Of a stretch of 64,000 bases of DNA, positions 10,257 through 37,395 are shown in pieces. Location of the stretch: assembly GCA_965208105.1 (NCBI GenBank), contig OZ242318.1, positions 2,112,001 through 2,176,000 on the forward strand, in the 5' to 3' direction. The notes under the pieces were generated by a model, which was not told where the DNA came from, made no database searches, and saw only the letters and a program-made list of their open reading frames with translations. The position numbers and the translations under genes are program-made. The stretch's first letter is position 1. Each line of letters begins with the position of its first letter. This DNA comes from Candidatus Latescibacterota bacterium. GTDB lineage: Bacteria; Latescibacterota; UBA2968; UBA8231.

Positions 10257-10898
10257 GGTAGTGTCTCAGTTTGAAATTGGCCTATGGGTTAGGCAATAGC
10301 AAAGTGGCAAAGACCTTTACTATTTTCTTATTCCTGGTTTCTTGGAACAGCGTCCAAGGAGAGGAATGGAACGGCCTAAACGTGGCCCCAGAGGATAGAT
10401 GCAGTCGGTATGACCGCAGAGACTATCCGTATCCACAATCAATTGAGCTTGCCCTCATTGAGCGCGACGGCCTTATTTCTCGCTACACAGGGCGGGTTTT
10501 CGCATCGCGTGATTCGTCAAATATAGAGCATATCGTAGCCACCAGTGAGGCCCATGATTCGGGCCTATGTGCCGCCTCCGATTCGACGAAGAGGGCATTT
10601 AGTCGCGACTTGCTCAACTTGGCACTGGCCAGTCCACAATTAAACCGCTATGAAAAGAGAGATAAAGACGCGGCTGACTGGCTTCCGCCTCTAAATCAAT
10701 GCTGGTTCGTCCAGACCATCATAGCGGTGAAACAGAAGTACATGTTGACCGTATACGAAGCGGAGCGTGACGCATTGCAAGCCGTCTTGGACGAGTGCTC
10801 CGCCACCACTACAAGCTTTAATAGCTGGGGTCGCCTAAAAGCATGGTTCAGACGCTTGATGCCAAACCCATAGGCCAATTTCAAACTGAGACACTACC
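10257..10898. mobile_element. Non-autonomous cassette bounded by IS1-family terminal inverted repeats
   Basis: GGTAGTGTCTCAGTTTGAAATTGGCCTATGGGTT at 10257 and its exact reverse complement ending at 10898. The first 22 bp equal the IS1 end at 25466. Confidence 0.8.
10271..10873 (+). CDS. Secreted HNH/DUF1524-like (GmrSD C-terminal-like) nuclease with SWGRLK tail
   Basis: IEHIVATSEAHDSG, DLLNLAL, N..EKRDKDAADWLPP motifs; signal peptide (start possibly GTG 10304). Confidence 0.75.
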   Translation: MKLAYGLGNSKVAKTFTIFLFLVSWNSVQGEEWNGLNVAPEDRCSRYDRRDYPYPQSIELALIERDGLISRYTGRVFASRDSSNIEHIVATSEAHDSGLCAASDSTKRAFSRDLLNLALASPQLNRYEKRDKDAADWLPPLNQCWFVQTIIAVKQKYMLTVYEAERDALQAVLDECSATTTSFNSWGRLKAWFRRLMPNP

Positions 10899-11675: not shown

Positions 11676-14375
11676 ATGGCCAATCTCCGCGAAGAAACCC
11701 TGAACACCCATCTTGCCCTGCTGCTCGACCAGTATGACGGGATCTCCGCGACCGCGGAGCGCCGTTCCGGACAACAAGCGATTGACATAACGGTGACTCA
11801 CGAGCACGCGACCGCCGCTATACCCATCTTCATAGAAGCCAAAGTGGGCGATTCCCCGTCCAAGCGCCGGGCGGCCGAGAAGCAGGCGCGTAAACGATTA
11901 TCTCCCCGGCCACGTGCGCTCGCTTGGGGCCTTTGTTATCCGGTCCACCTGCAGGACGGCTCGATCTCGGCTCGAGCTACCCAAAAGGCTCTCGCCAAAG
12001 CAGAGATTGCCTTCGCGCCCGTGTCGCGCTTGCCTCAGACCCTTTCCTGGCGCAAAGGCACGGTTGCCGACCTGGCCGACGAGCTGCTGAACTCCGAATT
12101 GTCCCAAAAGCACGTGGCCGATGCCATTGAGTACACCGTCCACAAGGCGGCGGAGATACTCTTCAGCGCCGGATCGGCTCCCGCCCTCGCCGAGGCCCTG
12201 GCCCTCCCCAAAACGTCTAAGGAGCTTCGCGCAGCGGCTCTCATCGCGTCGCTGATGTTGTCCAACGCGGCCCTGCTCCACCACCGTCTGCGGCTCGTGG
12301 AGCATCTCAGCCATATCGTTTCCCTTAAAGAAACCCTCCTGCATCCTCCGATCTTCGATCAAGAGGACATGGCGCCGAAGGCCCTCCAGGCGGCCTGGGA
12401 GGCCATACTCCGCATTGACTACCATCCTGTCTTTGTCCCGGCTCTGGCCGTTTTGAAGGTCCTGGCCGACGAGCTGGCTTCGTTGCGCTTCGACCATGCC
12501 GGCCCGCTCTATCACCGGCTGCTGGCCTCCGCCAAATACGACGGTTCCTTCTATACGAACAATGTGTCGGCGCTACTGCTGGCAAGGCTGGCGCTCAACG
12601 AAGGCGCGGCCGAATGGCAGGACGCCAACGCGATAGCCAAGCTCAAGGTGATCGACCCGGCCTGCGGCACGGGGACGCTGCTGATGGCGGCAATGCACAC
12701 CATGCGCGACCGCCACCAGCGCACTGCGGAGACGGATCTCGACCTGCTGCACCTGGCCCTGGTGGAAGACGTGCTGCATGGTTTCGACATCAATCGCCAC
12801 GGCATTCAGCTGGCCGCCTGCAATTTGACCCTGGGAAATCCTCGGGTCGATTATTCGCGTATGAACCTGTTTACGATGAAACACGGCCCCCTGCCCGACG
12901 ACGGGACCACCAAAGCCGGGTCCCTGGAGCTGCTAGCGACGGCCAGAGACGAAACAGACGTGGCCAGCCTCACGTCACCGCTGCCGACGACAGGTGCTCT
13001 GGGCGCGGAGCACATCGAGGCGGGAGGGGCGGGACCGACCGAAAAGCTCCTCGGGGAGTTCGACCTGGTCATTATGAATCCGCCCTTCACCCGGAACGAT
13101 ATCCGCAACCGCCAATACGACAAACGCGCTCGCCGAGCTGTCCAAAAGCGGGAAATTCAAATCGCCCAATCCGTCAAAACCTGGGAAAACGAACTGGCGT
13201 TCAAGGCTATCGACCAGACGAGTGTGAGGACATTTTTCTCCCCCCTGGCTGACGTACTGTTAAAGGAAAAAGGCGCTGGACTGGCGGAGGTTGTACCGAC
13301 GACGGCTTTGACCAGCTCCTCGGGCATTCCGGAGAGGCAATTCCTTGCCCATCGCTTTCAGATCGAGACCATCGTCACCAGCCATGACCCGACGTGCATC
13401 AACTTCTCGGAGAACACGAGCATCCACGAATCGCTGATGATCGCTCGGCGCCCAGAAGCCGAACGCAAGCCCACGCGGTTTATTTCGCTCGCCCGGATGC
13501 CCCGTGACGCCCACGAGGCGCTGCAGCTTGCCGATGTAATCAATGGAGACCAGCCGCTCGACGATTGGGGCACCCAACATCAGTGGCCGTGGCCGCGCAT
13601 TCGCGAAGGCGACTGGAGCGCCGCGCAATTCTATGATGGAACGCTCGCTCATGCCGTCCGCGACCTTGAAGCCCTGGCCGGAACAACGCTCAGGGCGGCC
13701 GGGGAGCTATGCCATATCGAGCCGGAAGGGCGGAGAGTTCGCGATGCTTTCCAGCGCGATCCGCCCAAAAACGCGCCATGGACTGCGCCTATTCTTTGGG
13801 ATCACTCGACGGATATTCAGGTGTCGATGGAAGCTGAACCTGACGTTGTGGGTGCTCCCAAGCCCGGCAAGGAGGACTACGCGCGGGGGAGGCTCACCGG
13901 GAAAGCCAGCCGGTTGCTGGTCGCTAGCCGGCTACGAACGAACCTGGTGCGTATCGCGGCGTGTTACGCGGCAGTGCCTCTGCTGGGTTCGGCCTGGGTT
14001 CCGGTGCGGCCCATAGCGCCGGATCTCACCTTTGAGCAAGCCCTCTGCGCATGGTGGAATTCCACGCCTGGCATTCTCACACTGCTACATTGCCGGGCCA
14101 AAGCTCTGGACTATCCACGGTACGCCCTCGAATCGCTCCGCTCCTTGCTCGTCCCGGATCCAAAGCGTGTCGATCTCGCGCCCCTAATGGACGCCTTCGC
14201 CCAAACTCGCGCGGAAACGCTACTGCCCTGGCCGCACATGCACGAATGCCCGGCCCGCGCCGTCCTCGATCAGGCCACCGCGCAGGTCCTTGGCATCGAC
14301 GGCCGCCTGGTCGCCAGCTGGCGTGAGCGTATCGCCGGCGAACCCACGGTATGCAATCGCCGGCCCTTAAAATAA
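11676..14375 (+). CDS. Fused type IIG restriction-modification enzyme (PD-(D/E)xK nuclease, N6-adenine MTase, TRD)
   Basis: N-terminal IDI...IEAK; motif I VIDPACGTGTLL; motif IV NPPF; 899 aa. Confidence 0.85.
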   Translation: MANLREETLNTHLALLLDQYDGISATAERRSGQQAIDITVTHEHATAAIPIFIEAKVGDSPSKRRAAEKQARKRLSPRPRALAWGLCYPVHLQDGSISARATQKALAKAEIAFAPVSRLPQTLSWRKGTVADLADELLNSELSQKHVADAIEYTVHKAAEILFSAGSAPALAEALALPKTSKELRAAALIASLMLSNAALLHHRLRLVEHLSHIVSLKETLLHPPIFDQEDMAPKALQAAWEAILRIDYHPVFVPALAVLKVLADELASLRFDHAGPLYHRLLASAKYDGSFYTNNVSALLLARLALNEGAAEWQDANAIAKLKVIDPACGTGTLLMAAMHTMRDRHQRTAETDLDLLHLALVEDVLHGFDINRHGIQLAACNLTLGNPRVDYSRMNLFTMKHGPLPDDGTTKAGSLELLATARDETDVASLTSPLPTTGALGAEHIEAGGAGPTEKLLGEFDLVIMNPPFTRNDIRNRQYDKRARRAVQKREIQIAQSVKTWENELAFKAIDQTSVRTFFSPLADVLLKEKGAGLAEVVPTTALTSSSGIPERQFLAHRFQIETIVTSHDPTCINFSENTSIHESLMIARRPEAERKPTRFISLARMPRDAHEALQLADVINGDQPLDDWGTQHQWPWPRIREGDWSAAQFYDGTLAHAVRDLEALAGTTLRAAGELCHIEPEGRRVRDAFQRDPPKNAPWTAPILWDHSTDIQVSMEAEPDVVGAPKPGKEDYARGRLTGKASRLLVASRLRTNLVRIAACYAAVPLLGSAWVPVRPIAPDLTFEQALCAWWNSTPGILTLLHCRAKALDYPRYALESLRSLLVPDPKRVDLAPLMDAFAQTRAETLLPWPHMHECPARAVLDQATAQVLGIDGRLVASWRERIAGEPTVCNRRPLK

Positions 14376-15162: not shown

Positions 15163-15333
15163 TTAGGAACCGTGTTTCCCGTATTGCTCCAGGCCCATGC
15201 GGATCAGCCGCATGGCTGTTCTCGACATCGAGCGATCTTCCTCCTTGGCAATCTTGACAATCCGATTATAGGTCTCCGTCTCGATCATGAGATACAACTT
15301 TTTGGTTTTGGATTCCTCTTTGGATTGGTCCAT
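15163..15333 (-). CDS. Ribbon-helix-helix (Arc/CopG-like) regulator, 56 aa
   Basis: Not in the ORF track. MDQSKEESKTKKLYLMIETETYNRIVKIAKEEDRSMSRTAMRLIRMGLEQYGKHGS*, with GGAGGG RBS. Confidence 0.75.
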   Translation of the reverse strand: MDQSKEESKTKKLYLMIETETYNRIVKIAKEEDRSMSRTAMRLIRMGLEQYGKHGS

Positions 15334-15371
15334 CGGTCCCTCCAGTAGAAAATCTTCCGAAAGCGATTCGG

Positions 15372-15436
15372 CGTTGCTCGTCAGTGCAGGCGCAACCTGC
15401 AGACCAGGGCCCTAGATAATGGCCCTGGTCTCTACT
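15372..15436 (-). ncRNA. Type II hammerhead-ribozyme-like element, copy 1 (degenerate)
   Basis: Minus strand: GAGAC, 7-bp stem III, GUC, 6-bp stem I, CUGACGA. GAAA is changed to GAGA and stem II is poor. Confidence 0.45.
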
Positions 15437-15523
15437 CAAAGTTGCTGGAACAACTGCCGAAGCAGCATATTAGAGGCATACCGCTCGAAGGCGCGCCTGC
15501 GGTATTCAATCCGGCTCTGTAGC

Positions 15524-16012
15524 CTACTGCTCGGGGTGCTGCGACACCAGGCCCTCGTGATAAAGCCTTGCCCGCAGGAAACTCCCGATCTCGGCGGCGG
15601 GCAGCTCCCACTCGTCGTCCCACAAGGCCACGTACTGGCGCTTGAAGTCGTGGTAGTAGCGGAACACGAAGCGATGGATGCCCACTTCACCTTCCTCGTC
15701 AAAAACGGCAGCCTCCTTGCCGATGGGGTCGCGCAGGTCCTCGTCCATCGGCAGGTCCTGGTCGAGAATGTAGTCAAGCAAGAGCGTCAGGGCGAGTTGC
15801 GACGGCCCCGATCCGCTGTATCCCCACTTGAACCCGGTGGGCGAATGGTTCGCAGACTTTCTGGGATGGCTTGGGGTCCAGGACCTCTCCGTTGGGCCGC
15901 AGGACCTCGACCTCGGGCATACCCTGCCCCTTGACTTCGACCCTGCGGCCTGGCACAGCCACCAGAAGCACCGCAGCGGGCTTTCTACGGTCGTCTGCTC
16001 CGCTCTTCTCAT
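15524..16012 (-). CDS. DUF6166-like phage protein with apparent compensating frameshifts
   Basis: NHSPTGFKWGYSGSGPSQLALTLL motif. The expected upstream LDPKPSQKV lies in another frame. AGGAGG RBS. Confidence 0.65.
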   Translation of the reverse strand: MRRAEQTTVESPLRCFWWLCQAAGSKSRGRVCPRSRSCGPTERSWTPSHPRKSANHSPTGFKWGYSGSGPSQLALTLLLDYILDQDLPMDEDLRDPIGKEAAVFDEEGEVGIHRFVFRYYHDFKRQYVALWDDEWELPAAEIGSFLRARLYHEGLVSQHPEQ

Positions 16013-16099
16013 TTCACCTCCTAGTTGAGTGTGGACGTTCCCATCAGGGCGCACAGCCTCTCGCCCTGCCTCACCTTCCCCTCCCAGTGCTCCGCGTGT

Positions 16100-16534
16100 C
16101 TATCCCAGAGTGCGGCCAGCGCCTCCTGGTAGGCTTTGTCGTCTCCCAGGGCTCTTTTGTTTCTGGCTCGACGGGGCTTCTCTGCGACAGAAGGCAGCCT
16201 GCCTGCGCCTCAGCGCCATATCTGGCCTCTTCCTCATACGACTAACCTCCCTGAGGTGCGCTTGCGCGCCACTCTGGCAGGACCTCGCGCACAACCAGCC
16301 CATAGCGCCTCTCGCAATCCTTTTGCAACACAAACCCCTAGCTGCGCTTACTTCGCCGCACAACCCTATTCGGAGCATCCAGCGAAGCCTGGAAGCACTC
16401 AGCGTCCTTACGAGCCAGGGCCGCCGCATGAGGGTTTCTGCGCGCATGAGCCTCCGCGTAGGGCCCAGCCAGCTCCGCGCCAGCCGCTCCATCTGCTGGT
16501 CGTCCTTGGCCCGTCTCGCGAAAGCTGTCCGCAT
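16100..16534 (-). CDS. Hypothetical Arg-rich protein
   Basis: AAGGA RBS and position in the operon; no recognisable motif. Confidence 0.35.
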   Translation of the reverse strand: MRTAFARRAKDDQQMERLARSWLGPTRRLMRAETLMRRPWLVRTLSASRLRWMLRIGLCGEVSAARGLCCKRIARGAMGWLCARSCQSGAQAHLREVSRMRKRPDMALRRRQAAFCRREAPSSQKQKSPGRRQSLPGGAGRTLG

Positions 16535-16568
16535 AGGTCTCTTCCTTTCTGCCGGTAAGGACCCGGCG

Positions 16569-16635
16569 TAGCGTCATCAGTGCGGTTGCGGTCCGCAGAC
16601 TCAGGGCCCTGGGGTAGTGGCTTTGGTTTCTGCTA
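16569..16635 (-). ncRNA. Type II hammerhead-ribozyme-like element, copy 2
   Basis: Minus strand: UAGC-A-GAAAC, stem III, GUC, 5-bp stem I, CUGAUGA-C-GCUA. The core is complete; A-C mismatches in stems II and III. Confidence 0.55.
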
Positions 16636-16827: not shown

Positions 16828-17477
16828 GTCCTCGACCCTTTCTTCGAGTTGTTGTAGGACCACACGGCCTTGCCGGTCCTGGCGCAGAAGCGCAGCCCAT
16901 GCCCCGGACAGCGGATCACGCCATGCTCGTCCGGCTCGATCTCCGATAGGTCCACGGCCCAATGGGGGCATATCTTCGTCCGCAGATCCAGCTGAGCGTC
17001 CTGGTATTCCTCCCGGAGCATCCCCCCAGCCTCGATTCCTGCGATGGGCAGCCCGGCCACGGTCTCAGATATGTCCGCTTCATCTTTCGTATCCAGGTCC
17101 TCCGCTCGAACTTCGACAGCCAAGCCAGGATTTTCCGGTTCTGCTTGGGGTAGTGGTCCGGCTCGCTGCGATACAGGCACAGGTCCTCATATCTTGGTCT
17201 CCTCGCCCTCGGGGACGATCAGCCGTCCCATCAGGGGCGCATGGTAGCAGGCCGTCGGAATAGGCTTTCCGTTGCTGCCGTTGGCCTCCACCCTCGATTT
17301 CAGCGCCTGCGGCTCCGTCAGAAACCGATAGTCCACATGGTAGTGGATCGGCGGAAAGTCCTGGCTCTCGTCCGTGTGAAACGAACCCATCACCGGCCAC
17401 CAGTGCGGGTTGTAATTCGCGCCCGGCGTCCAGATGGCCCGCACACACAGGACCTCGACCTTATCTTCTATCTCCAC
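16824..17477 (-). pseudogene. Phage-type Rieske [2Fe-2S] domain protein split by one in-frame TGA
   Basis: ORFs 17187..17477 and 16824..17180 share a frame. CPH and CPGHG boxes; N-terminal WPVMG..HTD...HYHVDYRF motif. Confidence 0.7.
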
Positions 17478-17922
17478 GACTCCCCCCTTTCCACGGCAGC
17501 ACCGGATTGATCTCCTGGCAGTGAAAGCACTCCACGCCTCTGCCTCCGTCCCTGGCAGCCCGTATCCCCGCCAGCGACACGTCGAACCAGCGCATACAGC
17601 CTTTCACGCACTGGAACTTGTTCAGGAACGCCTCTTGCGAGGTCTCCCACACGATGACCTCGATGCTGCCCCTCGGCCTCGCCAGTAGCTCATCCCGGCC
17701 TACCGCGTCGTCGAACTGCGTCATGAACAGAATCAGCGTATCCGGCGTAGGGGCCTGGTAATACACGCCTTCGATACTCCCCGAGATGATCGAGTAATGC
17801 ACCGAAGGACACCACACGCCCGCCGCCTCCATCGAGAGCGCTCCAGGGCAATGCTGATTGTCGCAGTCAGCCCCGGTCCGGATCATCTGCTCTGTGATCG
17901 TGAAGGTGATGTGATTGCTCAA
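17461..17922 (-). CDS. Phage-type CxxxxCP family protein (paralog 3) with C-terminal Zn-finger-like motif
   Basis: ITEQMIRTGADCDNQHCPGA...FMTQFDD; CVKGC and CFHC; AGGAGG RBS. Confidence 0.7.
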   Translation of the reverse strand: MSNHITFTITEQMIRTGADCDNQHCPGALSMEAAGVWCPSVHYSIISGSIEGVYYQAPTPDTLILFMTQFDDAVGRDELLARPRGSIEVIVWETSQEAFLNKFQCVKGCMRWFDVSLAGIRAARDGGRGVECFHCQEINPVLPWKGGSRGDRR

Positions 17923-18329: not shown

Positions 18330-18428
18330 AGCCTATCTCCTTGTGTGATTGTGTGCGACGGGACGTGAACCCCGGCAGAAGGCTTAACCGCAGAGGAGCC
18401 ATATACGACTCTCTGCGGCCCCTCACCG

Positions 18429-19109: not shown

Positions 19110-19162
19110 GTCTTCTCCTCGATGTGAAGCTGGGGACGGCTACCCACCGCCCCCGGCAGTTT

Positions 19163-19504
19163 CTACGGATGGAACAGCCGCGCCAGGCCCAAGCGCCGGA
19201 ATGCCTGCTCCACCTCAGAATTGAGCAGTGTATCAATCCCCAGCCAGTAGCCCAGCCCCGAAGTCCACTCGTGCAGCTTCTCCAGCGTTTTCGCGAACTC
19301 CTCCGGGGTCTCGCACTCCTGAACCTCAAGGTCCCCCTCCTGGAACTTCACGACCTTCAAGGCCATAGGGTTGGCCCACTGCCCGAAGTAGCTGGCATCC
19401 TGCGTTGTGTCGATCTGTGCATAGCCCTTGGAGACATGACACGCGCCGAAGTCGAAGCGGTAGCGGTCCCCGTGCGGCTCCAAGTGCTGCCGTGTGATCT
19501 TCAT
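19163..19504 (-). CDS. Conserved-looking mobile-element hypothetical protein
   Basis: DRYRFDF...GYAQIDTTQDASYFGQWANP...EGD pattern recalled from plasmid/phage proteins; ATGA overlap. Confidence 0.75.
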   Translation of the reverse strand: MKITRQHLEPHGDRYRFDFGACHVSKGYAQIDTTQDASYFGQWANPMALKVVKFQEGDLEVQECETPEEFAKTLEKLHEWTSGLGYWLGIDTLLNSEVEQAFRRLGLARLFHP

Positions 19505-19956
19505 GCCTCCCCCTCCTCGACACGAGCAAGGAAGTCCTTGTCTGTCTCGATGTGCTCAGGGTAGTCCTCGTCGAACTCGAAGGGCCGGAACACCAGTCGC
19601 GCCTTGATCGGCATCACGGGTTTCACCTCCGAGACAGGGACCCCGCGTTCAGGGTGATAGTCGTCGAAATTGCGAATCCAGGCCCGCAGCTCAGCCGGGA
19701 GCAGGAATGTTGCTATGGTCTCTCGGTTGTATGGGGTGGGAATGTTGAAGTAGATATGGAGGCGCTCCCCACCCACAACCACATTTGATGCGCCTAACGG
19801 TTCGGCCACTCGAAAGGTAGCCCGCGCCGTTGGGCACTCGCCGCTGTCGCACTGAACCCCGTGCTTGATGTCGGATTGCTCAATGCTGATGTCGAGAGAA
19901 CGCGGTATCTTGCGCCGCACTTCTCGATGCACCTGGAGATAAGGGCCATTGCTCAT
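19501..19956 (-). CDS. Phage-type CxxxxCP family protein (paralog 2)
   Basis: ISIEQSDIKHGVQCDSGECPTARA...LPAELRAWIRNFD; GAGGAG RBS. Confidence 0.75.
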   Translation of the reverse strand: MSNGPYLQVHREVRRKIPRSLDISIEQSDIKHGVQCDSGECPTARATFRVAEPLGASNVVVGGERLHIYFNIPTPYNRETIATFLLPAELRAWIRNFDDYHPERGVPVSEVKPVMPIKARLVFRPFEFDEDYPEHIETDKDFLARVEEGEA

Positions 19957-20050
19957 TACTCCTCCTCGTGATGGGTAATAGCGGGGCTTGGGGTACCGGC
20001 TCTGCGCTTTACCCGGCGAGACTGCCCCGACAGTCTCGCCGTCCCCTCAG

Positions 20051-20440
20051 CTACACTACTGGCTCGGGTTCCTCCGGCGACAAATCCCTGAAGGCGACAA
20101 GGTGATAGTTCGATTTCGGAAGCTGTGCCTTGATCGGCTTCACCTGCTGACAGTGATCGAAATTCCTCACCCATTTCCTCAGCACCGCAGGGAGCACGTA
20201 GCACACTCTCAGCCTGTGCCTCGGCTCCACTCCGTCAAAGCCGAACATGACGCTGATGGAGCCCACTGAGACGGTAACGGTGCGGGATTCCAGAATTCTC
20301 ATGGTCCGCAATGCTGCCAGGGCTGTGGGGCATTCACGGCAATCCGCCGTGACTCCGGCGTTGATGTCGTGTAGCTCGATGCTGATCTCAAGCTGCTTCG
20401 GCAGCTCGCTGAACAGCTTTTCGGATGGTGTAGGTTGCAC
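20051..20440 (-). CDS. Phage-type CxxxxCP family protein (paralog 1)
   Basis: ISIELHDINAGVTADCRECPTALA...LPAVLRKWVRNFD; GAGGAGG RBS, GTG start. Confidence 0.75.
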   Translation of the reverse strand: MQPTPSEKLFSELPKQLEISIELHDINAGVTADCRECPTALAALRTMRILESRTVTVSVGSISVMFGFDGVEPRHRLRVCYVLPAVLRKWVRNFDHCQQVKPIKAQLPKSNYHLVAFRDLSPEEPEPVV

Positions 20441-20464
20441 TGTGGTTCCTCCTCGACACGAATT

Positions 20465-20492
20465 GAGGGAGGAGACCGAAGTCTCCTCCCTC
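20465..20492 (-). terminator. Intergenic 12-bp hairpin with cUUCGg tetraloop (terminator or stability element)
   Basis: Minus strand GAGGGAGGAGAC-TTCG-GTCTCCTCCCTC. No strong U-tract. Confidence 0.6.
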
Positions 20493-20496
20493 GGGG

Positions 20497-25474: not shown

Positions 25475-26353
25475 TCAGTTTGAAATTCGGCGCTTGTAAG
25501 TTTTTGGGCGCTTGGGTTTGGGTGCCTTGGCATCTATCAAGCTGATGATCCATCCCATATTGCGCGGGGAGGAGCTGAGTCCAGCCTCCATCGCGGGCGT
25601 CACCCTGAGCGTTTTGTGAATCCGGCAGAAATTGTAGTGCAGAAAATACAGGCTCAGCATATGCAGGTGATTGTCCAGCTTCTTACTAAACGCGTTGGTC
25701 AGCCTGGTAAAGCGACGCATGCCCATCCTCATACTCAGGTTGTGGCGCTCCACATGCGACGTACTGATGGCTGCTTTGTCCGGCTGGCCCTGAATCCGCC
25801 GCTTTCGGGTGCCAGTGCATCGAGATGGGCTGTACCGCTTCTCCTCTTTCGGCGGGTCCTGGAAAAGCTTAATTAGCTGGGCGAAATCTACTGTATCCCC
25901 AAAGGCCTCCTCGACCGCTTCCAGATAGCTATGTAGTCCGTCCGTGGTAAGCTGGACCCTGCCCAATAAACGGCTGCGCAGGTCCAGCATGAAATCCCTG
26001 GCCGTATCCAGCGACCTGTCTCCAATGAGGTAGCACAGGATCATCTTGCTGTCAGAGTCCAGGGCCGTCCAGGTCCAGACATCGCCCGACCCACCAGGGG
26101 CATTTTTGGCCGTCTCGACGTTTTTGTCTTTGGCGTAGCAGAAGGACCAAATCTCATCACACTGCACCCGTTTGGCCTGGATGCCGCGCACCATCTCATC
26201 ATGGTATTCGGCGCATGCCCAACCAGCGTCTACCAGGAGCTTTGTGACTGTGTTGATGGATACGTCAGCCGTGCGGCTGATGGAGCGCATGGACATCCCC
26301 TCGACCAGCATATTGAGGATCATCACGCGCTTGGATAGGGGCAACTGATTCAT
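25475..26353 (-). CDS. IS1-family DDE transposase
   Basis: QCDEIWSF, TTDG, STSHVERHNL..RMGMRRFTRLTNAFSKK, HKTLRVTPAM. Confidence 0.9.
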   Translation of the reverse strand: MNQLPLSKRVMILNMLVEGMSMRSISRTADVSINTVTKLLVDAGWACAEYHDEMVRGIQAKRVQCDEIWSFCYAKDKNVETAKNAPGGSGDVWTWTALDSDSKMILCYLIGDRSLDTARDFMLDLRSRLLGRVQLTTDGLHSYLEAVEEAFGDTVDFAQLIKLFQDPPKEEKRYSPSRCTGTRKRRIQGQPDKAAISTSHVERHNLSMRMGMRRFTRLTNAFSKKLDNHLHMLSLYFLHYNFCRIHKTLRVTPAMEAGLSSSPRNMGWIISLIDAKAPKPKRPKTYKRRISN

Positions 26354-26420
26354 GCCCCTAATATAGGAAAGGAATAGGAAAGGAACCGCTATTTGTCAAG
26401 CATTTATTTCATTTTATTTT

Positions 26421-26987
26421 CTATATTGGGTTAGATCTTCCAATCATCAAATCAGCGGCAGAGTATTCAAACTCGCTGTTCAGCATTCGAACTTGGAGCG
26501 TTTTTTCCTTTTTCTCATTTGGTTCTGATACCGTCAACTGGGCTGCCAGTTCTATGATCCTATCTAATTCTGTTTCACTAACAAACTTTGAAACTGCCGT
26601 CTCAATATCTGTGTCGCTATGAGTCAAATCCACTAATTTTTGCAATACCTTTTTAAGTTCGGAAGAGTAAAATCGAACCTCCTCGCTTAGGTTCCTAGGT
26701 TGATGTATGTGCATATTAACCTCAAACCCACAAGCAACAACAAATGAAAAAAACGTAAAAAGTGACAACTTATCGCTAGTTGCGTCCTCAATCTTTGAAA
26801 TCTGGCTTGGACTAACTCCAAGCCTTTCAGCAAGGCTGGCCTCGTCCAAATTCTTTAAATTGCGCATCTGGAATAGTATGGAACTGAAGTGCTTCTTCGC
26901 ACAGGTGTTCTTAAATTCTTGAACGAAGCTCTCATCGTCCGAAAGTTCTTCGATCATCTCCATAACCGAAGAAAATGATTTACCCAT
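26421..26987 (-). CDS. XRE-family HTH protein, probable HigA-like antitoxin
   Basis: LAERLGVSPSQISKIE HTH; overlaps the upstream toxin-like gene; low GC. Confidence 0.7.
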   Translation of the reverse strand: MGKSFSSVMEMIEELSDDESFVQEFKNTCAKKHFSSILFQMRNLKNLDEASLAERLGVSPSQISKIEDATSDKLSLFTFFSFVVACGFEVNMHIHQPRNLSEEVRFYSSELKKVLQKLVDLTHSDTDIETAVSKFVSETELDRIIELAAQLTVSEPNEKKEKTLQVRMLNSEFEYSAADLMIGRSNPI

Positions 26988-27360
26988 TGTTTTCTTCCTC
27001 TCGTTTCCGGTTTAGCTTTTTGACAAAGGAGCGAGCCTCTGCGATGTCTCTTCTTTTTTGAGTACTCTTATCTCCAATTGTGATCTGCCATAAAATTTCT
27101 TTTTCCAATTCGAGAAATGCGTAAAGTCTGACTGGAGCCGCCACTCTTCCACTTCCCCTACCATCAAAAGCTATAACTCCCTTGCCCTCAGGGCGAATCC
27201 CCTTTTTTTTCGTAATTTCCAGGGAATTTTTGCCCAATATTAGAAGATCAAAGAACTTTCGAAAATTCTCTAAGGCTTGTATGGCCTCGAATCTATGCTT
27301 TTTAATAACTTTTTTATACCGTGACTCGAACTGGTCGGACACCTCTATTCGCCAAGCCAT
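26980..27360 (-). CDS. RelE/HigB-like toxin
   Basis: Basic 126 aa; RLYAF...ITIGDKSTQKRRDI resembles the RelE/Gp49 C-terminus; sits upstream of the HTH gene. Confidence 0.6.
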   Translation of the reverse strand: MAWRIEVSDQFESRYKKVIKKHRFEAIQALENFRKFFDLLILGKNSLEITKKKGIRPEGKGVIAFDGRGSGRVAAPVRLYAFLELEKEILWQITIGDKSTQKRRDIAEARSFVKKLNRKREEENNG

Positions 27361-27383
27361 ATCTTATCAGGTTATTGACGGTA

Positions 27384-27620
27384 CTAATCAGTGGATGCCT
27401 GTGAATCCCATCTAGCCATGGCTGCCTGTCTCGCAATCTCTGAGCGTCTTTTGGGAGATCTTTTCGCTTGGGCAATCGTAGCACCCCGCTTGCCTCCTTT
27501 GACCTTGTTCGGTTGCTTATATCCCTCATCTTCAATCTCGCCAGTTGCGATCTTTGCAACATGCACAGCACAGCCCACTACATCGCCAGGCCTACGTTCT
27601 CCTTTGGGTCCCTTGGGCAT
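27384..27620 (-). CDS. Small conserved basic protein often found beside IS1/IS1595 passenger elements
   Basis: MPKGPKGERRPGDVVGCAVHVAKIATGE...RRSEIARQAAMARW. Confidence 0.75.
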   Translation of the reverse strand: MPKGPKGERRPGDVVGCAVHVAKIATGEIEDEGYKQPNKVKGGKRGATIAQAKRSPKRRSEIARQAAMARWDSQASTD

Positions 27621-28027
27621 AAGAGCTTTCTCCCTTCGCCTGATCTAACCCAATGATGTGATTTATTTTGATGTGGACAAGGACATCCCGCGCAGATTGT
27701 TGATCTGTGGTTCAGATTAGGATGTCCAGGCAATATTAATGGACGGAGGTTACAACTTTATTGGACGCCGCAAGTATTACTTTGTTTCTCTACAACCCAT
27801 TGTGCACTCAAGCCAATAAATTTCAATATGTTGCGCATGGCCTTAATTTCAATGACTAATATACGAAAATTTTCCGCGATTTGTCAACAGCAGTAAACAT
27901 ATTCTTAATTCCTTTAGAATTCAAACTGCGACACTGCCAGGTTTTCGGTAACAGATTTGCCGCCCGAGTAAATTGGCGAGGCAGGGTCTCCCCGCCTTGC
28001 GCGTCCCCTGACACGGTGAAAGGGTTC

Positions 28028-28501
28028 ATGCCGGGTATTGTTGCCTTTCCTACGATCGTCGAGGAAGCCGTGGACGAGTTCGGCTGGATGTTCGCCAACA
28101 CCCCGGAGCGCTGGCACTTTGCCGAATATCTGACCGGGCTGATGGTCGCCGAGCGCAAGAACGTTTCGGCGATCAACGCCGAGTTTGCCCATACCATCAA
28201 TCCATCCTGCCTGAACCGCTGGATCACCCAGATGCCGTGGGGCGTGGGACAACCCAACGACCATCGTTTGGCCTGGTTGCAGGGTCATTGACCCGCTGTT
28301 CAGCGCGGGGGTGATCGCCAATTACGTGTGTTCGTCAGGGGAACATGATCCTTTGGAGTTTCGCCATTTTCGCAAGCGGTAAGAGGGCGTCGAAGGCGAG
28401 TCGGCTAAGCCCTTCAAGAATCACACGGACCTGTTCAAGGAATTGATAGACTGGGTGATGGAGCGAAAGATTCCGAGTGATTTCGCCTTTGACTGCTACT
28501 T
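28028..28501 (+). pseudogene. IS701-family transposase remnant, interrupted by IS5
   Basis: HFAEYLTGLMVAERKNVS...CLNRW and FAFDCY segments. Confidence 0.65.
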
Positions 28502-28503
28502 TA

Positions 28504-29371
28504 GAAGTTATCTCAAAAATAGGACTATATTTTTTGGCCACACTTAATTATAGAAAGGAGGAGACCGTAACCAAGGAGGCCCACGTTGGATCTTACCGAC
28601 GAGCAGTGGAACGTGCTTGGACCTTTGATCAAGGAGCCCCCGCGCCGTGCGGATGTCCGGGGCCGCCCGCAGGTGCCGCCTCGACCGATCATAGACGCTA
28701 TCTTGTGGGTGCTGCGCACGGGGGCGCCGTGGGCCGATCTGCCGGCTCGTTATCCGCCCTATCAGACCTGTCATCGCCGTTTCCAACAATGGGCGCGCGA
28801 CGGGACGTTGGAGCGGCTCTTGCGCGCGTTGGCCGAGGACCTGCGCGAGCGCGGTGGGATTGACCTCAACGAGTCTTTCATCGACGGGACGTTCGCGCCC
28901 GCCAAAAAAGGGGGCGGCAGGTGGGAAAAACCCGTCGGGGCAAGGGCACCAAGATCATGGCCATTGCAGACGGCGCTGGTCTTCCTGTCGCCCTGTGCAC
29001 GGAAAGCGCTTCGCCCCACGAAGTGACCCTCGTCGAGAGAACGCTCGATGCCCGCTTCCTCGGCGAAGAGCCCCAGCGGCTGATCGGTGACAAAGCCTAT
29101 GACAGCGATCGGCTGGACGCCCATCTCAGGCATCAGCGTGGCATCGAACTCATCGCGCCGAATATCCGCAACGCCGCACGTCGCGCGCCACGACAGAATG
29201 GCCGTCCCCTGCGCCGCTATCGACGGCGATGGAAGGTCGAACGCCTCTTTGCATGGCTTCAAAACTTCCGCCGCTTGGTTGTGCGTTACGAATACCACGT
29301 CGAGAACTTCCTCGGTTTCCTCAGGCTTGGTTGCGTCGTCATACTCCTTCGACGCTTTTTGAGATAACTTC
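28504..29371 (+). mobile_element. Complete IS5-family (IS427-like) element, two ORFs joined by a -1 frameshift
   Basis: 16-bp TIRs GAAGTTATCTCAAAAA, TA target duplication; ORFs 28586..29026 and 28921..29367; A6G slippery site at 28904; GDKAYD and [11 protein letters not shown]. Confidence 0.9.
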
Positions 29372-29457
29372 TATGCACCCTCCCCCAGGGGACCACTGCC
29401 CACATGCGCCTTCAGCCCGAAATGCCAATTCTTCCCTTTCCTCGTTGAGCCCATCTA

Positions 29458-29640
29458 AGGGTCCCCTCGCCGAGCAGCAACCCGCGCTCGGACAAAATCT
29501 TTTCTGTAGGCCGAAACAAGGCTGAGGTCAACCCATGGCGCTCGAGAAAGTGTGGCGAAACTTGCAGATCGTGGTCTCATCCGGAATGTGGTCCGGATCT
29601 CCCCCCAAGCGACGCATCGATTCCACGTCATACAGACTAT
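29458..29640 (-). pseudogene. IS5-family (IS5 subgroup) transposase fragment
   Basis: IPDETTICKFRH/FLERHGL...ERGLLLGEGT across a frameshift. Confidence 0.7.
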
Positions 29641-29929
29641 CTTCCATCGCCGGTCAGGTCCTGCACTTTGATGGGCGTTTTTATCACTCCGCCCGTGCCT
29701 CCCGTTGTTGTCGGAGGCCTCGGCCTCCTGGCCTTTCAGCACCATCAGGGTAGAAGCCAGACCCACCTGCTCACTGAAAGTCTGAATTTCGTTGCGTAGT
29801 CGATCGCTGGGTTGTATTATGCGCATGATAGCGTGAACTCCTTCCTGCCCATCGTGGGCACCAAAGGTTATGGGATTATTCTCTTGGAAGGTACTTCACG
29901 CGGTCACTTTTTGCAGAAAATCTCCAGCG

Positions 29930-30646
29930 CAACCGTCCGGGAAGTGCGCCGACGGGGCATGGCCGTCAACCCGAAGCGCATCCAGCGTATCATGCAAGAG
30001 GAAAAGTTCCAGTCCTGGTCAAACGCTATGTGCGTACTACCTATTCAGCCCGGGGTCTGGCTCCCTATCCCGACCTGATCAAAAGGCTCATCCCCAGCCA
30101 TCCCAACCAGATTTGGTGTGGCGACATCACCTACATTCGGCTGCCCTCCGAGTGGGGCTATCTGGCCGTTTTGTTGGATCTGTTTACCTGCGGCATTCGC
30201 GGCTGGCACCTGGGCCGCAGCTTGACCGAAGAGCTGGTCTATGTCGCTCTGGAACAGGCCCTGGCGCACCATCAGGCGCCGCAGATCTATCACTCCGACC
30301 AGGGTATCCAGTATCTGGCCAACGGCTACGTGAACCGGCTCCAGCCCCAGCAAGTACGGATCAATCTAGCCGCCAAAGGCCGCCCTACGGAGAATGCCTT
30401 TGCCGAGCGCCTCATTCGTACCCTCAAAGGAGAGGAGGTTTATCTCAACGAGTATCGGTCCTTCCAGGAAGCCGATCAGCACATCGGCTAATTTCTGGAA
30501 GAGGTCTACATGAACAAGCGAATCCATTCTGCTCTGGCGTATCGGACGCCGGCTGAATTCGAGGCCCAGTTTAATGCCCGGGGTTAGTTATAATTCCGGG
30601 TCAACTCCATTCCACTAAATGTGTCTAGCTATATGGGGGCACTTCA
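29930..30646 (+). pseudogene. IS3-family OrfB fragment with right end
   Basis: WCGDITYI, HSDQGIQY, ENAFAER; premature stop; terminus ends ...CACTTCA. Confidence 0.8.
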
Positions 30647-31426
30647 ACTTCCGCTGGAGGTGTCTCATCCCAATGAACACGGTCCGCAGCCCTATCAATT
30701 ATTTCCAGAGAATGGCTGTATCTTATGTTCTTTGCCACGGAAGTCCAGGCCTACCCATGTGGATCTATGGCTCCCCTTGCTTACCAATTTTCCATCTGCT
30801 ACAAACCATTCGCCTGCACCGATAGATTCAAGCTCTTGGTAGTACCCATAGGCGCTGCGGTAGGTGCGGTCCTCATGAAGCGTGATGCCGGAGATCACGA
30901 CGCTTTGTGAGTTGAGTTCATCTTTACGAACCCATAGTCCAACACCTGATCTTCCAGGTTTCTTTCTTTTTGTGAAGACCAGGGGTCTTATCCGCAAGCA
31001 ATCAAACCCCATAAGCTCCAATTTGCTACGAAAAATATGATGAATTTCACAGCAAGTCCTCCTCTTAAAATATACAGGTGCCCCAACCGGGGAGAAATTG
31101 GGGCACCTGCACAGAGAGATTTACGGGCACTCTTTACAACAATATCGACCGTTCTGGCCCAATCGCCGCCGTCAGCCGATGGAAAAGCCGAATATTATGC
31201 ACAGAATGGCGAGATAGAAGCCAATGCCCGCTACCGTCGCCCATACTACGTTCAAACGCTCTTGGGGGGTACGCATAATGGGGTCTCCTTCTTTGTGGTA
31301 CGCAGGTTGCCCAATGCCCGTCTTGCCAACCAAGGACCATTATCCCCCTGGTCGGCGGGGCTTATCCAACTCGCTGAGAATCAGAAATGTGGATTGGGCG
31401 AGAAAGAAGGAGAGGAAAGTTTGTGC

Positions 31427-31572
31427 TTGACAAAGCTCCAAACTATCCGTAACTTGGCAGGAATTCATACTAAACCCTCCGTCTAAGGGTTAAGTATTCG
31501 GGCTGGAGGCGCTTTGCCCGCGCTTCCAGCCTTCTTTGTACCCAAGGTAGTATCTGCGCTGGCGCAGGTCAA
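31427..31572. promoter_or_regulatory. Convergent promoter pair defining a leader and a ~75-nt antisense RNA
   Basis: Plus: TTGACA-N17-TAACTT and terminator 31501..31537. Minus: TTGACC-N17-TACCTT, GGAGGG RBS, ATG at 31468. Confidence 0.55.
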
Positions 31573-31798
31573 GTTCTTTTTGGGTACTTTAGCATTTTAA
31601 TAGAACCGGGGCGCCCAACTCCCCAATAGAGCGCCTCGCACAAAGGGCCTAGCAGTCGCGCTCAATGAGGGCAAGCTCAATTGATTGTAGATACGGATAG
31701 TCTCAGCGGTCATACGGACTGCGTCTATCCTCTGGGGCCACGATTAAGCCGTTCCATTCCTCATCCAATGGATCACCAAACGCGGCCGATCCGCCCGG

Positions 31799-32490
31799 GT
31801 GGGTCTGGAAGCCACCGGGGTCTACAGCTTGGAGGTGGCCTTGGCCCTGGACCGCCATCCCCGGACCGAGGTGATGGTCGTCAATCCCAGGGCGATCAAA
31901 AACTATGCAGGCGCTCGTCTGCAGCGCGCCAAGACCGACCCCGTCGACGCCCAACTGATCCTTGATTTTGTCCAGCGCATGGACTTTGTACCCTGGCAAC
32001 CGCCCCTCGACGAGGTTCTGCAGTTACAGGCCATCACACGGCGCATGAACCAACTGAAGGTCGAGGTCAACCGCGAAGCCAATCGTCTACATGCCGAAGG
32101 ATATCGCTCCAGCTCCTCCGCACTGATCGAGCGCGATATCCACGTCCATATCCGCCACATGCAAAGTCGCATCCGGCTGTTGGAAGAAGAAGGGGTCGCG
32201 CTGGTCCTCTCGGTGCCCGAGCTGAGTGAAAAATTTCACCATCTGCTCTCCATCCCCGGCATAGCCCAAACCAGTGCGCTGCGCCTGATCGCTGAGTTGG
32301 CGGTGTTACCCGCCGATATGAAAGCACCCCAATGGGTCGCGCAGGCCGGCTTGGATCCGCGGCCCAAGGAGTCGGGAAACTCCATCCATCCACCGAGACG
32401 CATCACCAAGGCCGGAAATAAATATCTGCGTGCTGCTCTATATATGCCCGCCCTGGTGGCCATTCGTTTTCAGCCCCAGGTCAAAGACGT
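31799..32490 (+). pseudogene. IS110-family transposase, truncated at both ends
   Basis: GLEATGVY, VVNP, AKTDPVDA, SIPGI, AGLDP..ESG.S, KAGNKYLRAALY. Confidence 0.85.
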
Positions 32491-32516
32491 GGTAGGATTT
32501 CCTAAGGGGAGATCTG

Positions 32517-32575
32517 TAGTTGAGCGAAACTGTGGTTAGGCAAATCAATTACCTAACCACAGTTTCGCTCAACTA
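32517..32575. repeat. Perfect 24-bp inverted repeat with 11-nt spacer
   Basis: TAGTTGAGCGAAACTGTGGTTAGG-caaatcaatta-CCTAACCACAGTTTCGCTCAACTA. Confidence 0.9.
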
Positions 32576-32755
32576 GGATGTCCTTCTAGATGGCGGTCTA
32601 TATTTCCATCAAGGCGATCCAGTCGTTCATCAAAGCGTTGTACTGCTCGGTCAATCTCGCCTTTCAAATCTCTCCCGACAAATAGAATAAACCAACTCGA
32701 TTTCCCCTGAAAGATTTATTGATGCGTCCTACGAGATAGGAGCTTCCAAAGAATC

Positions 32756-32956
32756 TCACTCAGCGGGACGGTCGCCGGTTGCGCGCGGCCTGGATTTAAG
32801 CCAGCGTTCGACTTCGGAGGCCTTCCATCGGACCGCTCGATGCCCGATCCGCAGGGGTAGGGGGAATTCACCTTGCCTTAGCAGCCGATAAAGTGCGGAT
32901 CGGCGAAGTCGGATACGGTCTTCGACCTCTTTCCTGGTCATTAACTTGTCTTCCAT
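32756..32956 (-). CDS. AlpA-family regulator/excisionase
   Basis: LMTRKEVEDRIRLRRSALYRLLRQGEFPLPLRIGHRAVRWKASEVERW; AGGAGG RBS. Confidence 0.9.
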   Translation of the reverse strand: MEDKLMTRKEVEDRIRLRRSALYRLLRQGEFPLPLRIGHRAVRWKASEVERWLKSRPRATGDRPAE

Positions 32957-33224
32957 TTCACCTCCTCCTTTGTTGGTTTCTTCCCCCAAGATGCCGAAAA
33001 CAGATGTAATAACAAGGTTAAAAAATACGTCTATTTTTTTACTACGAAATAAGTAAAATTTGACTTGCTGGATTCCCCATGCCGCTTAGTATACCACGAG
33101 TCAACTGCAAAAAATCTTTAAAGCAGGAGGCTTTATAATGCACCACGCACTTATAGCCGTAATTTTGATAGGATGCACCGCTATGAACGTAACGACCCGA
33201 GGCAATTCCATAGTGCTTGGTGAG

Positions 33225-34333
33225 TGGAGTTACCCCGGTTTGGTGGACAGTTTTGCACCTGAGATTTCCGGGCGTTCCTTCCATCTCATTTCATAGCTGA
33301 TGGGCGACAAATAGTCTATGGCCGAGTGGCTACGATGGGGGTTGTACCAACCCTCGAAAAACGGAAAAGGGCGATGGAGGTGTATTGGCAGCCTTGATCG
33401 GAATGATGAATCACGTCCTGCGGTCGACGCTGAGCCAGGGCCATATTGAGGGCATCCAGCACCAACTCGGCACCTAAATGGGCGGCCATAGCCCAGCCGA
33501 TGATGCGCCGACTGAAGGCATCCAGGACGACGGCCAGGTAGGTGGAAGCCCGCCCAGGTAGCCACGTAGGTGATGTCGGCCACCCACAAACGATCGGGGC
33601 CGTCCGCGCTGAAATCCCGGTCCACCAGATCAGGGGCTGGACGCCGATCTTTGGCCCGGCGGGTGGTGGTAACCCAGGGACGACGACTCACCCCTTGCAA
33701 GCCCGCTTGGCGCAACAGGCGCGCCACCCTCTTGGCGCCCACGTGAACGCCTTCCTGACGCAACTGAGCAAGGATGCGCGGGGTGCCATAGGTGCCATCC
33801 GACCAGGCATGGATCGCCTCGATGTGGGCTTGGAGCCGGGCATCGGCTTGGCGACGAGCTGAAGGATGCCGTACGCGCCACGCATAGTAGCCGCTGGTGG
33901 AGACACCCAGCACACGGCACAGCGTGGTCACCGGATAGAGGGCCTGATACGCCTTCACGAATTCGAAGGCTCTGTGGGCATCGAATCGGTCTCCCGAGCG
34001 AACCAGGCCGCTGCTTTTGCCAGGATGTCGCGCTCGGTGCGCAACTGCTTGATCTGGCGACGCAGGCGTCCGTATTTCGGCGCGTTCGGAGGTGGTCAAG
34101 CCATCGTGGCGCCGGCCGCTCCGGCCGCTATCGAGGTCGGCCTGTTTTACCCAGGTTTGGATCGTCTGAGCGGAGGGCTCGAACTCTTTGGCCAAGGAGC
34201 CAGGCGAGCGTCCGGAGCGGACCAGCTCGATCATCTGCTGGCGAAATTCGGGGGGATAGGGAATACGTGATTTAGGCATGGGGGGCTCCTTTTCATCAAG
34301 TGATAAGGTACCCACCAAACCGGGTCAGCTCCG
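33225..34333 (-). mobile_element. IS3-family element with frameshifts and internal deletion
   Basis: Imperfect TIRs TGGAGTTACCCCGGTTTGGTGG / CCACCAAACCGGGTCAGCTCCG; YPPEFRQQMIEL and WVADITYV motifs. Confidence 0.85.
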
Positions 34334-34975
34334 GGGGCATGACCTGCCCGGCATTGCGGTAAGCAAAATATTCATCGGTGACCAGGGCGGATTTTGCAAC
34401 CTTGGACTTCTCCTTGATGAAGCCCAGTAGGGTGCGGCTCTTGGTGTCGTGGGTCACCCTGGCTTGACTTCCCCGCCGCGCGGGACGGCACCGGCCACGG
34501 AAGCCTTGCCCGAAGCGCCCGGCGGCGCATGGTGCGGGAATTCTTGTAGCAGACCTTCCCGCCCACCTATTTCGATAATGCCTTGGACCAATCCGCCCTC
34601 GTCTGTGACCATTGCGGACCGAATGCACTGTTGCATCCTCCATGCGGTTTTCTGGTTCAACTCCAGACCCCGGGCAAGCTCATAGCTGGACAGGCTTTCA
34701 CTTTCATTGGGGTCGGCCATAAGGGCTATGGCCAGGAACCACTTTTTTAGTTCAATATGGGTCCCCTGGAAAATGGTCCCTGTAAGCACATTGAAACTGT
34801 TGGTGCACTCGTTGCAGTTCCACCGACCCAACCGGTTGCTTTCGTTCTTCTGTCTCACCCTTTCACTGCCACAGAAGGGGCAATAAGCCTGCATGGGCCA
34901 ACGGACTTTTTCAAGGTGATCGATGCAGGCTTGCTGGTCGGGGAACTGTTGAAAAATGGTAGTCAGGCTCATCAT
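34334..34975 (-). pseudogene. IS1595-family transposase remnant cut by IS3
   Basis: CPFCG/CNEC Zn ribbon, TGTIFQGTHI.L.KWF, LVTDEYFAY. Confidence 0.8.
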
Positions 34976-35378
34976 TACCCCTTCAACTACTACAAATATA
35001 CTATCCAAAGGGGTTGTGTTAAATCATTTTCTCCTTATTTCCTTTTACTAAAAAAGAAAGAACCTATTTGCTTGCTATAGCGCTCTCGTTGACCATTGCC
35101 ATCCTGCCATGCTTTCTGTCTTGACGCATTCAACCATGGTCTTCGGAATCCTGCAACAAGCCATCCAGAGCTCGCCCTATGGAAGTACGGCAAATTGGGT
35201 CGGTAAATTAGGCTGTTTGAAAGGGGACCTCGATAGACGAGAGAGTGTTCGCATCCTGGAAGTCGGCAACGGACCGCAAGGGAGTAGACATAAATTTTAC
35301 AGTAAGGTTGGCCGATCCTTGCCTCCTGTCCAATCCAGGGCTCCCAAAACCAGGTGGGTGATGGGCCTTCCATCCTGA

Positions 35379-37137: not shown

Positions 37138-37288
37138 AATTTTTCCCCACAATTTAACCCACGTAATAGTAAGGAATATAACGGAATCGTCGGAAAACCG
37201 CAAACCGAACGGAGAACGACAACTTATTTATGGAAAAGAAGTTAAGAGCGCTAAAGGGAACAGAAGGGAATCGTGAGAACGATCAGGA

Positions 37289-37377
37289 TGGTGCCGAGGG
37301 CCGGACTCGAACCGGCACGGCCGATTGCGGCCAACGGATTTTAAGTCCGTCGCGTCTACCAATTCCGCCACCCCGGC
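37289..37377 (-). tRNA. tRNA-Leu(TAA)
   Basis: GCCGGGGTGGCGGAATTGGTAGACGCG...CT-TAA-AA...GTTCGAGTCC...CCA; long variable arm. Confidence 0.97.
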
Positions 37378-37395
37378 GCCGGCTCTGACGAAAAA

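Follow-up and report, generated by a model that had tools for sequence, protein, structure and literature searches.

In 2011, type II hammerhead ribozymes were described as forming arrays that flank small genes of phages and prophages (PMC3088659), and a review of 2017 treats the biological role of these hammerheads as still open (PMC6155905). Here we consider two elements of this kind in a 64,000-nt stretch of the genome of a Candidatus Latescibacterota bacterium (contig OZ242318.1, positions 2,112,001 to 2,176,000; below, the window, to which all coordinates refer). Its minus strand contains two homologous intergenic repeats of ~90 nt, one at about 15352-15440, directly upstream of an Arc-like repressor gene (copy 1), and the other at about 16547-16635 (copy 2). 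Each has the architecture of a type II hammerhead followed by a hairpin in the 3' tail; copy 1 is degenerate, and copy 2 has an intact core and damaged stems. Both deviate from the intact members of the family, and their genomic surroundings are decayed as well. The two repeats are new, degenerate members of an element kind known since 2011. Probably, they are paralogous relics of type II hammerheads, with at most weak activity left in copy 2.

The closest described systems are the clustered type II hammerheads of bacteria, phages, and prophages (PMC3088659; RF02276). The window copies share with them the core motifs and the location between small genes of a phage-type operon, with more than one copy per operon. 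Unlike these hammerheads, copy 1 has an A14-to-G change in the core and no stem II, and copy 2 has a mispair at 10.1/11.1 and a damaged stem III. Another comparison is provided by the "cryptic mutant hammerheads" rejected from the 2011 alignments, which, like the window copies, have core changes or mispairs beside the core; they were taken to be non-functional and were mainly parts of repeated elements (PMC3088659). The window relics differ from them in having a typical prophage gene context, and candidates in such a context were often tested in the same study, some having proved active (PMC3088659). Intact viral members of type II have a stem I and a core nearly identical to those of the window copies, whereas the latter fall below the Rfam cut-off and score lower in the family model described below. 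In the early operons of phages, stable intergenic hairpins that process or stabilize the message stand between cistrons just ahead of ribosome-binding sites (RBSs) and depend on host RNases. Stable hairpins precede RBSs in the window operon, too, including its other gaps, but the hairpins of phage early operons have no hammerhead core, whereas the window elements are clearly ribozyme-derived.

On the minus strand, copy 1 reads ...UUUGAGUA-GAGAC-CAGGGCC-[AUUAUCUAG]-GGCCCUG-GUC-UGCAGG-[UUGCG]-CCUGCA-CUGACGA and continues as GC-AAC-GCCGAAUCGCUUUCGG...GGAGGG...AUG. Copy 2, which begins at the UAG stop codon (16635-16633) of a short upstream open reading frame (ORF), reads ...CUU-UAG-CA-GAAAC-CAAAGCC-[..]-GGCCCUGA-GUC-UGCGG-[ACCGCAA]-CCGCA-CUGAUGA and continues as CGCUAC-GCCGGGUCCUUACCGGC...AGGAAG...AUG. 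The alignment of the copies has 132 columns, with a mean column identity of 78%. The pattern common to both, GTCTGCRG-N3-9-CYGCACTGAYGA, has exactly two matches in the window, compared with 0.00 expected from 100 shuffles. In the whole 4.85-Mb genome, the only exact matches are again the two copies, one further match with a single mismatch is found elsewhere, and the reversed control pattern has none. The helices differ by compensatory changes: stem I is UGCAGG/CCUGCA in copy 1 vs UGCGG/CCGCA in copy 2, and the 3' hairpin is CCGAA/UUCGG vs GCCGG/CCGGC. An initial examination of the window from its letters alone (the sequence-only reading) had claimed two homologous minus-strand elements at these positions, the type II order GA(A/G)AC, stem III, GUC, stem I, CUGAYGA in both, compensatory changes in stem I and in a shared downstream hairpin, and cleavage at C15402/U15401 and C16598/U16597. 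All of this agrees with the identity of the copies, the uniqueness of their common pattern, the sequences of both helices, and the positions of GUC; its caveats, GAGAC for GAAAC in copy 1 and two A.C mispairs in stem III of copy 2, were correct. The segment 14900-17300 is identical, with no other letters and no gaps, to contigs obtained by separate assembly of four runs from a single sample; therefore, the deviations in the copies are not errors peculiar to this assembly.

Relatives of the two elements are numerous in viral contigs. A loosened pattern, GTCTGCNG-N3-9-CNGCACTGANGA, matches at least 123 stretches of such contigs. Among the matches listed, to which the following counts refer, GAAAC is present at most 60 nt upstream in 100 of the 126 distinct ones, and 96 of these 100 have at least two stem II pairs beside the core. 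The usual layout is a stop codon, a 4-pair stem II strand, GAAAC, the stem III hairpin, GUC, the stem I hairpin, and CUGANGA, followed by the other stem II strand, an RBS, and ATG. In several contigs, two to four copies are spaced by a few hundred bases. Of the remaining 26 matches, most have the hairpin and GAAAC downstream, in a permuted, type III-like form, and one of these passes the Rfam Hammerhead_3 model; a few, such as L012, L051, L052, and L106, look like chance. In one intact viral hammerhead (L011), stem I and the core are one loop base away from copy 1. Stems I and III and the 3' hairpin are conserved in the relatives, as are CUGANGA, GAAAC, and GUC, and the covariation among them lies on the minus strand. 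The window copies agree with the phage family in their placement after a stop codon and ahead of an RBS, which had been noted in the sequence-only reading.

A covariance model (R1) was built from 91 viral type II sequences. Its training members score 48.8-73.7 bits, and untrained extra copies in the flanks of the loci 43.8-61.1 bits. Permuted (type III-like) forms score 20-37 bits and chance pattern matches 17-19 bits; only the score above the latter range counts as independent evidence. Copy 1 reaches 36.1 bits (E 1.7e-7) and copy 2 reaches 25.9 bits (E about 1e-4), whereas the next-best match in the window has 11.6 bits. Hence both copies stand clearly under the intact members.

The 3' tail links the window copies to a particular subfamily. 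The stem I and core pattern was extended by the non-core tail GCNACGCC(G) after the core, giving 24-25 specified bases. The extended pattern is found in four viral loci with three distinct sequences (L132, L133/L134, and L135), in one Gemmatimonadales metagenome-assembled genome (L145), and in two metagenome contigs that equal in length the viral contigs carrying L134 and L132. All matches are canonical type II hammerheads with a stem II of 2-3 pairs, and they carry a GCCGG-loop-CCGGC hairpin between the ribozyme and the RBS; an equivalent tail hairpin is present in the looser relatives L059, L062, L109, and L029. In an alignment of ten sequences (A3), among them L132, L133, L135, L145, L059, L062, L109, and L029, the named structure is 91% paired, compared with 77.4 +/- 1.7% in shuffles, none of 500 of which reaches the observed value. 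The tail hairpin itself is 98% paired, and both sides change in three of its five pairs. Thus, the "shared downstream hairpin" of the sequence-only reading is a conserved module of the subfamily. The subfamily and the window copies have in common CUGAYGA, G(G)C, (A/U)AC, the GCCGG...CCGGC hairpin before the RBS, and the type of stem I. Unlike the window copies, members of the subfamily have an intact GAAAC, clean short stems III, and a properly paired stem II, and their flanking proteins bear no relation to those of the window: none of 16 window ORFs was matched by tblastn in any of the fetched loci. A tail-anchored scan of viral sequences for further members yielded only three chance matches, all in coding regions. 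The loop of the tail hairpin, (A/C)(U/C)CGCU, resembles the stem I loop (UCGCU or UCGCA) of the same RNAs.

As criteria of membership we used the description of type II hammerheads in Perreault et al., 2011 (PMC3088659) and the Rfam family RF02276. According to the former, any change in C3 U4 G5 A6 N7 G8 A9 G12 A13 A14 A15 U16 H17 disqualifies a candidate, and a mispair at 10.1-11.1 is also a ground for rejection. The stretch from C3 to A9 is present in both copies (15384-15378 and 16580-16574), as are the A15.1-U16.1 pair and H17 at the cleavage site (A...GUC, with C17). The bases G12 A13 A14 are GAG in copy 1 and GAA in copy 2. Position 10.1-11.1 is mispaired in both, G.A in copy 1 and C.A, followed by four pairs, in copy 2. 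Both have the 1.1-2.1 pair and a regular looped stem I (U-A, G-C, C-G; six and five pairs, respectively). Stem III consists of nine perfect pairs in copy 1 and has multiple mispairs and a bulge in copy 2. Neither copy attains the Rfam gathering cut-off of 37 bits. Overall, both fail the published criteria. Homology to accepted members, which speaks of descent and not of activity, is demonstrated by the R1 E-values and by the non-core tail that is otherwise common to canonical hammerheads only.

The Rfam cut-off is strict: in 20 viral loci, only four type II matches, along with one type III match, pass. By motif and stem criteria, 18 of these 20 loci hold canonical-looking hammerheads, which score 49-74 bits in the family model. 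Therefore most intact phage members, and not just relics, are missed by the Rfam gathering score, and annotation pipelines will overlook them. At the Rfam gathering thresholds, the window yields two tRNAs only. At a permissive threshold, RF02276 matches copy 1 over the full model with 18.4 bits (cut-off, 37; E 1.2 on 1.5 kb), and no match to copy 2 is found by Rfam at E up to 10.

In copy 1, GAGAC (15428-15432) replaces GAAAC, the G at 15430 being core position A14; the base at this position is A in copy 2 and in all eight other rows of the ten-sequence alignment. In stem III (15403-15429), 15429-15421 pair perfectly with 15411-15403, giving nine pairs closed by a loop of 9 nt. The predicted ancestral cleavage site, given by the position of GUC, lies between C15402 and U15401. 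It is followed by stem I (15385-15401; UGCAGG-UUGCG-CCUGCA, six pairs), the core CUGACGA (15378-15384), the tail hairpin CCGAA-UCGCU-UUCGG (15357-15371), and the RBS GGAGGG (15338-15343) of the Arc-like gene, whose ATG starts at 15333. In the minimum-energy fold (RNAfold), 15431-15430 pair with 15402-15401, so that stem III has 11 pairs across the cleavage site, with G14 paired with C17 and A13 with U1.1. The fold consists of three strong hairpins, with a z-score of -3.7. Forcing copy 1 into the hammerhead fold costs 9.47 kcal/mol, which exceeds the cost for 92 of 93 family members (median 1.58). Next to the G.A mispair at 10.1/11.1, only a 2-pair stem II of G-C and U.G, behind a bulged A, can be drawn.

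Based on the known core requirements, we infer that copy 1 is catalytically dead, because the A14-to-G change removes a strictly conserved core base, stem III covers the scissile bond, and there is no proper stem II. Self-cleavage by copy 1 today is unlikely; as modeled, it would now be a plain, very stable stem-loop. Natural variation at A14 was rejected as an explanation: in none of the six viral matches to a GAGAC pattern does GAGAC replace GAAAC, one of them (L153) being ambiguous. Type II hammerheads also have a tertiary contact of stem I with stem II, commonly through a pseudoknot of at least four pairs between loop I and the 3' tail. About 40% of hammerheads use a pseudoknot (PMC3088659), and the sequence of copy 1 could pair loop I GUUGC with tail GCAAC; no such pairing was found by eye in copy 2 or in the intact subfamily members.

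Copy 2 retains GAAAC (16626-16630; G12 A13 A14 A15.1 C15.2). Its stem III (16599-16627) contains two A.C mispairs and a bulged A, and the predicted cleavage site at GUC lies between C16598 and U16597. Stem I (16581-16597; UGCGG-ACCGCAA-CCGCA) has five pairs and is followed by the core CUGAUGA (16574-16580) and the 3' strand of stem II (16569-16573), in which, by sequence and constraint folding, C16573 is mispaired with A16631 (10.1/11.1) and GCUA pairs with UAGC (16635-16632). The tail hairpin, GCCGG-GUCCUUA-CCGGC, occupies 16551-16567. Stem III is not formed as such in the minimum-energy fold, and the RNAfold z-score of -0.3 is no better than that of shuffles. Self-cleavage of copy 2 today is doubtful, and judged by its sequence, it may at best be a slow or weakly active ribozyme.

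Probably, the relics came with an integrated element of phage origin that is now degrading, too. While intact, each ancestral element would have followed the stop codon of a small gene and preceded the RBS of the next. By analogy with the family, the ancestral transcript would have cleaved itself after C17 of GUC while being made, releasing the upstream cistron with a 2',3'-cyclic phosphate. The downstream cistron would then start at a 5'-OH end capped by stem I, with the tail hairpin and then the RBS behind it. Such cleavage would uncouple neighboring cistrons of one operon. In copy 1, the single A14-to-G change would then both kill the core and extend stem III by two pairs over the scissile bond.

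Several points weigh against the interpretation of the copies as decayed relics. Copy 2 keeps every core base, and the cost of its hammerhead fold, 2.85 kcal/mol, is inside the family range. Active natural ribozymes with U.U at 10.1/11.1, stems II of 1-2 pairs, and weak stems III are reported in PMC3088659. Both copies preserve stem I and the tail hairpin, and in these helices they differ from each other by compensatory changes alone; the intact helices could reflect continued selection on some function. Finally, R1 is partly circular, its training sequences having been selected by a pattern derived from the window.

The first two of these points bear on the possibility that self-cleavage persists in copy 2 or, with lower likelihood, in copy 1, the transcript of the operon being cut before the following gene as in intact phage arrays. 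We consider this unlikely. Copy 2 indeed combines the complete core (CUGAUGA, GAAAC, and GUC) with a 5-pair stem I and a stem II of four pairs beyond the mispair, and the tolerance of active natural hammerheads for weak stems III and for U.U at 10.1/11.1 (PMC3088659) speaks in its favor. However, its mispair at 10.1/11.1 is C.A, this mispair and the mispairs and bulge in stem III are each disqualifying by published criteria, and its minimum-energy fold is devoid of stem III and not distinguished from shuffles. Its R1 score is only about 7 bits above chance pattern matches. For copy 1, the same possibility is opposed by the core mutation and the occluded cleavage site.

Another scenario is that copy 1 is a ribozyme turned into a regulatory hairpin or a stable leader before the Arc-like gene, the tail hairpin being a peripheral domain, not described before, that replaces the pseudoknot of loop I with the tail; this is quite unlikely. 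More generally, both elements may have been co-opted as non-catalytic structured leaders that protect the message, are processed by RNases, or adjust how strongly the Arc-like repressor and the neighboring gene are translated. The intact helices with their compensatory differences, the strong hairpins of copy 1, and the presence of a strong hairpin followed by a GAGGAG-type RBS in every other gap of the operon would fit such a role. However, the compensatory changes may predate the loss of ribozyme activity, the stability of copy 2 does not exceed that of shuffled sequence, none of 40 relatives matches the region by DNA, leaving no orthologs to show selection, and the neighboring genes are themselves broken. 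We regard co-option of this general kind as very unlikely.

The last possibility is that the likeness to hammerheads is coincidental, or that the elements function through the plus strand or at the DNA level, as a repeat, a terminator, or a binding site. It is largely refuted and hardly credible. In its favor, the A.C mispairs of copy 2, two in number, would turn into G.U pairs if the plus strand were transcribed, the tail hairpin of copy 1 is flagged as terminator-like, and Rfam alone gives copy 1 no better than E 1.2. Against it, the common pattern does not occur in shuffles, all of the closest relatives are canonical hammerheads, strand-specific and alike down to the tail, the genes, RBSs, and a promoter-like site (21232-21204) are all on the minus strand, terminator-like sites occur at chance frequency, copy 2 lacks a U-run, and plus-strand folds are no better than minus-strand folds. 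An intrinsic (Rho-independent) terminator was rejected separately, since only the tail hairpin of copy 1 was flagged, with five pairs and a weak U-run, and the counts of such sites are at the chance level.

The two elements belong to an operon whose genes are all on the minus strand, behind the promoter-like site, which is a single consensus match of a frequency expected by chance for the region. The operon comprises three phrog_19191 paralogs (17461-17922, 19501-19956, and 20051-20440), which encode small proteins, each with a Cys-containing N-terminal motif, a phrog_24512 relative, a Rieske-like ORF, the short ORF whose terminal UAG is part of stem II of copy 2, a DUF6166 gene, and the Arc-like ribbon-helix-helix repressor gene downstream of copy 1 (15163-15333; phrog_3431, E 3.7e-8). 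Between the copies, the DUF6166 gene (15524-15920, minus strand) is frameshifted near 15850-15860. Pfam PF19663 matches it in one frame and from profile position 27 only. The preceding LDPKPSQKV is in another frame and aligns to residues 32-40 of the homolog P0002, right before its NHSPDGFNWGY; thus, the N-terminal LDPKPSQKV lies in one frame and NHSPTGFKWGYSGSGPSQLA... in the next, and the separately assembled contigs agree on this.

On the same strand, the segment 16030-16534, between copy 2 and the DUF6166 gene, has no clean reading frame. An ORF that starts with ATG behind the RBS of copy 2 (16534-16100) is arginine-rich and has no family match, and protein-like pieces occur in the other two frames; the segment may be a gene with several frameshifts. 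The other gaps of the operon on the minus strand (18330-18428, 19110-19162, 19957-20050, and 20441-20496) each contain a strong G+C-rich hairpin and then a GAGGAG-type RBS. Neither hammerhead core motifs nor further relics were found in these gaps by R1 and nhmmer; the nhmmer matches to the two copies themselves are trivial, as its alignment included both.

The operon is part of an island. At what looks like the end of the island, a tyrosine integrase gene (35977-37203) adjoins genes for tRNA-Leu (37289-37377) and tRNA-Cys (37396-37470). The stretch 25475-37470 contains four transposase genes, of the insertion sequence (IS) types IS110, IS3-like, IS1595-like, and IS1-like, and the G+C content falls to 0.45 at 26-28 kb of the window. 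The 1.6-kb region with both elements is matched by DNA in none of 40 relatives. In the genome itself, R1, applied to 150 of about 2272 candidates, detects nothing besides the two copies. In 131 other genomes of the class, R1 finds no real hammerheads; two weak matches there are not hammerheads, having CAAGC instead of GAAAC. RF02276 gives four matches elsewhere in the same genome, at 15-17 bits and none above the cut-off, and 11 of 14 control genomes also give such matches. With the region missing from all 40 relatives and no real hammerhead in the 131 other genomes, the island has the look of a degrading element acquired by horizontal transfer.

The interpretation proposed in the sequence-only reading, namely, self-cleaving RNAs that segment an early or anti-defense mRNA and now decay with the element, holds in part. 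Hammerhead ancestry follows from the homologs, and decay from the failed criteria, the frameshifted DUF6166 gene, and the IS elements. The label of an early or anti-defense operon is unsupported beyond the presence of small genes of unknown function and the Arc-like repressor. Defense-type genes are observed just beyond the operon, on the plus strand. They encode a protein with a GmrSD_C domain (10271-10873) and another, of 899 aa, that contains N6 DNA-methylase and MmeI-like methyltransferase domains (11676-14375).

For the field, these relics change little, as the role of such arrays is only inferred. They provide a worked example of ribozyme decay after the carrier element is stranded in a chromosome, in which, in copy 1, a single point mutation would both inactivate the core and trap the cleavage site within a helix. 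Further study might be worthwhile only for the tail hairpin of the subfamily and for the tails that would mask the catalytic core in one fifth of the viral relatives.

The masking tails contain RUCAG, which is complementary to the core CUGAN and, among the matches listed, occurs within 20 nt 3' of the core in 21 of 92 viral type II hammerheads; shuffled tails have it 1.27 times on average, with a maximum of five in 500 shuffles. The tail would form a hairpin with the core; it is missing from the window copies. The R covaries with N7, C with G and U with A, and examples are L019:573-641, L046:568-639, L066:565-639, and L079:573-640.

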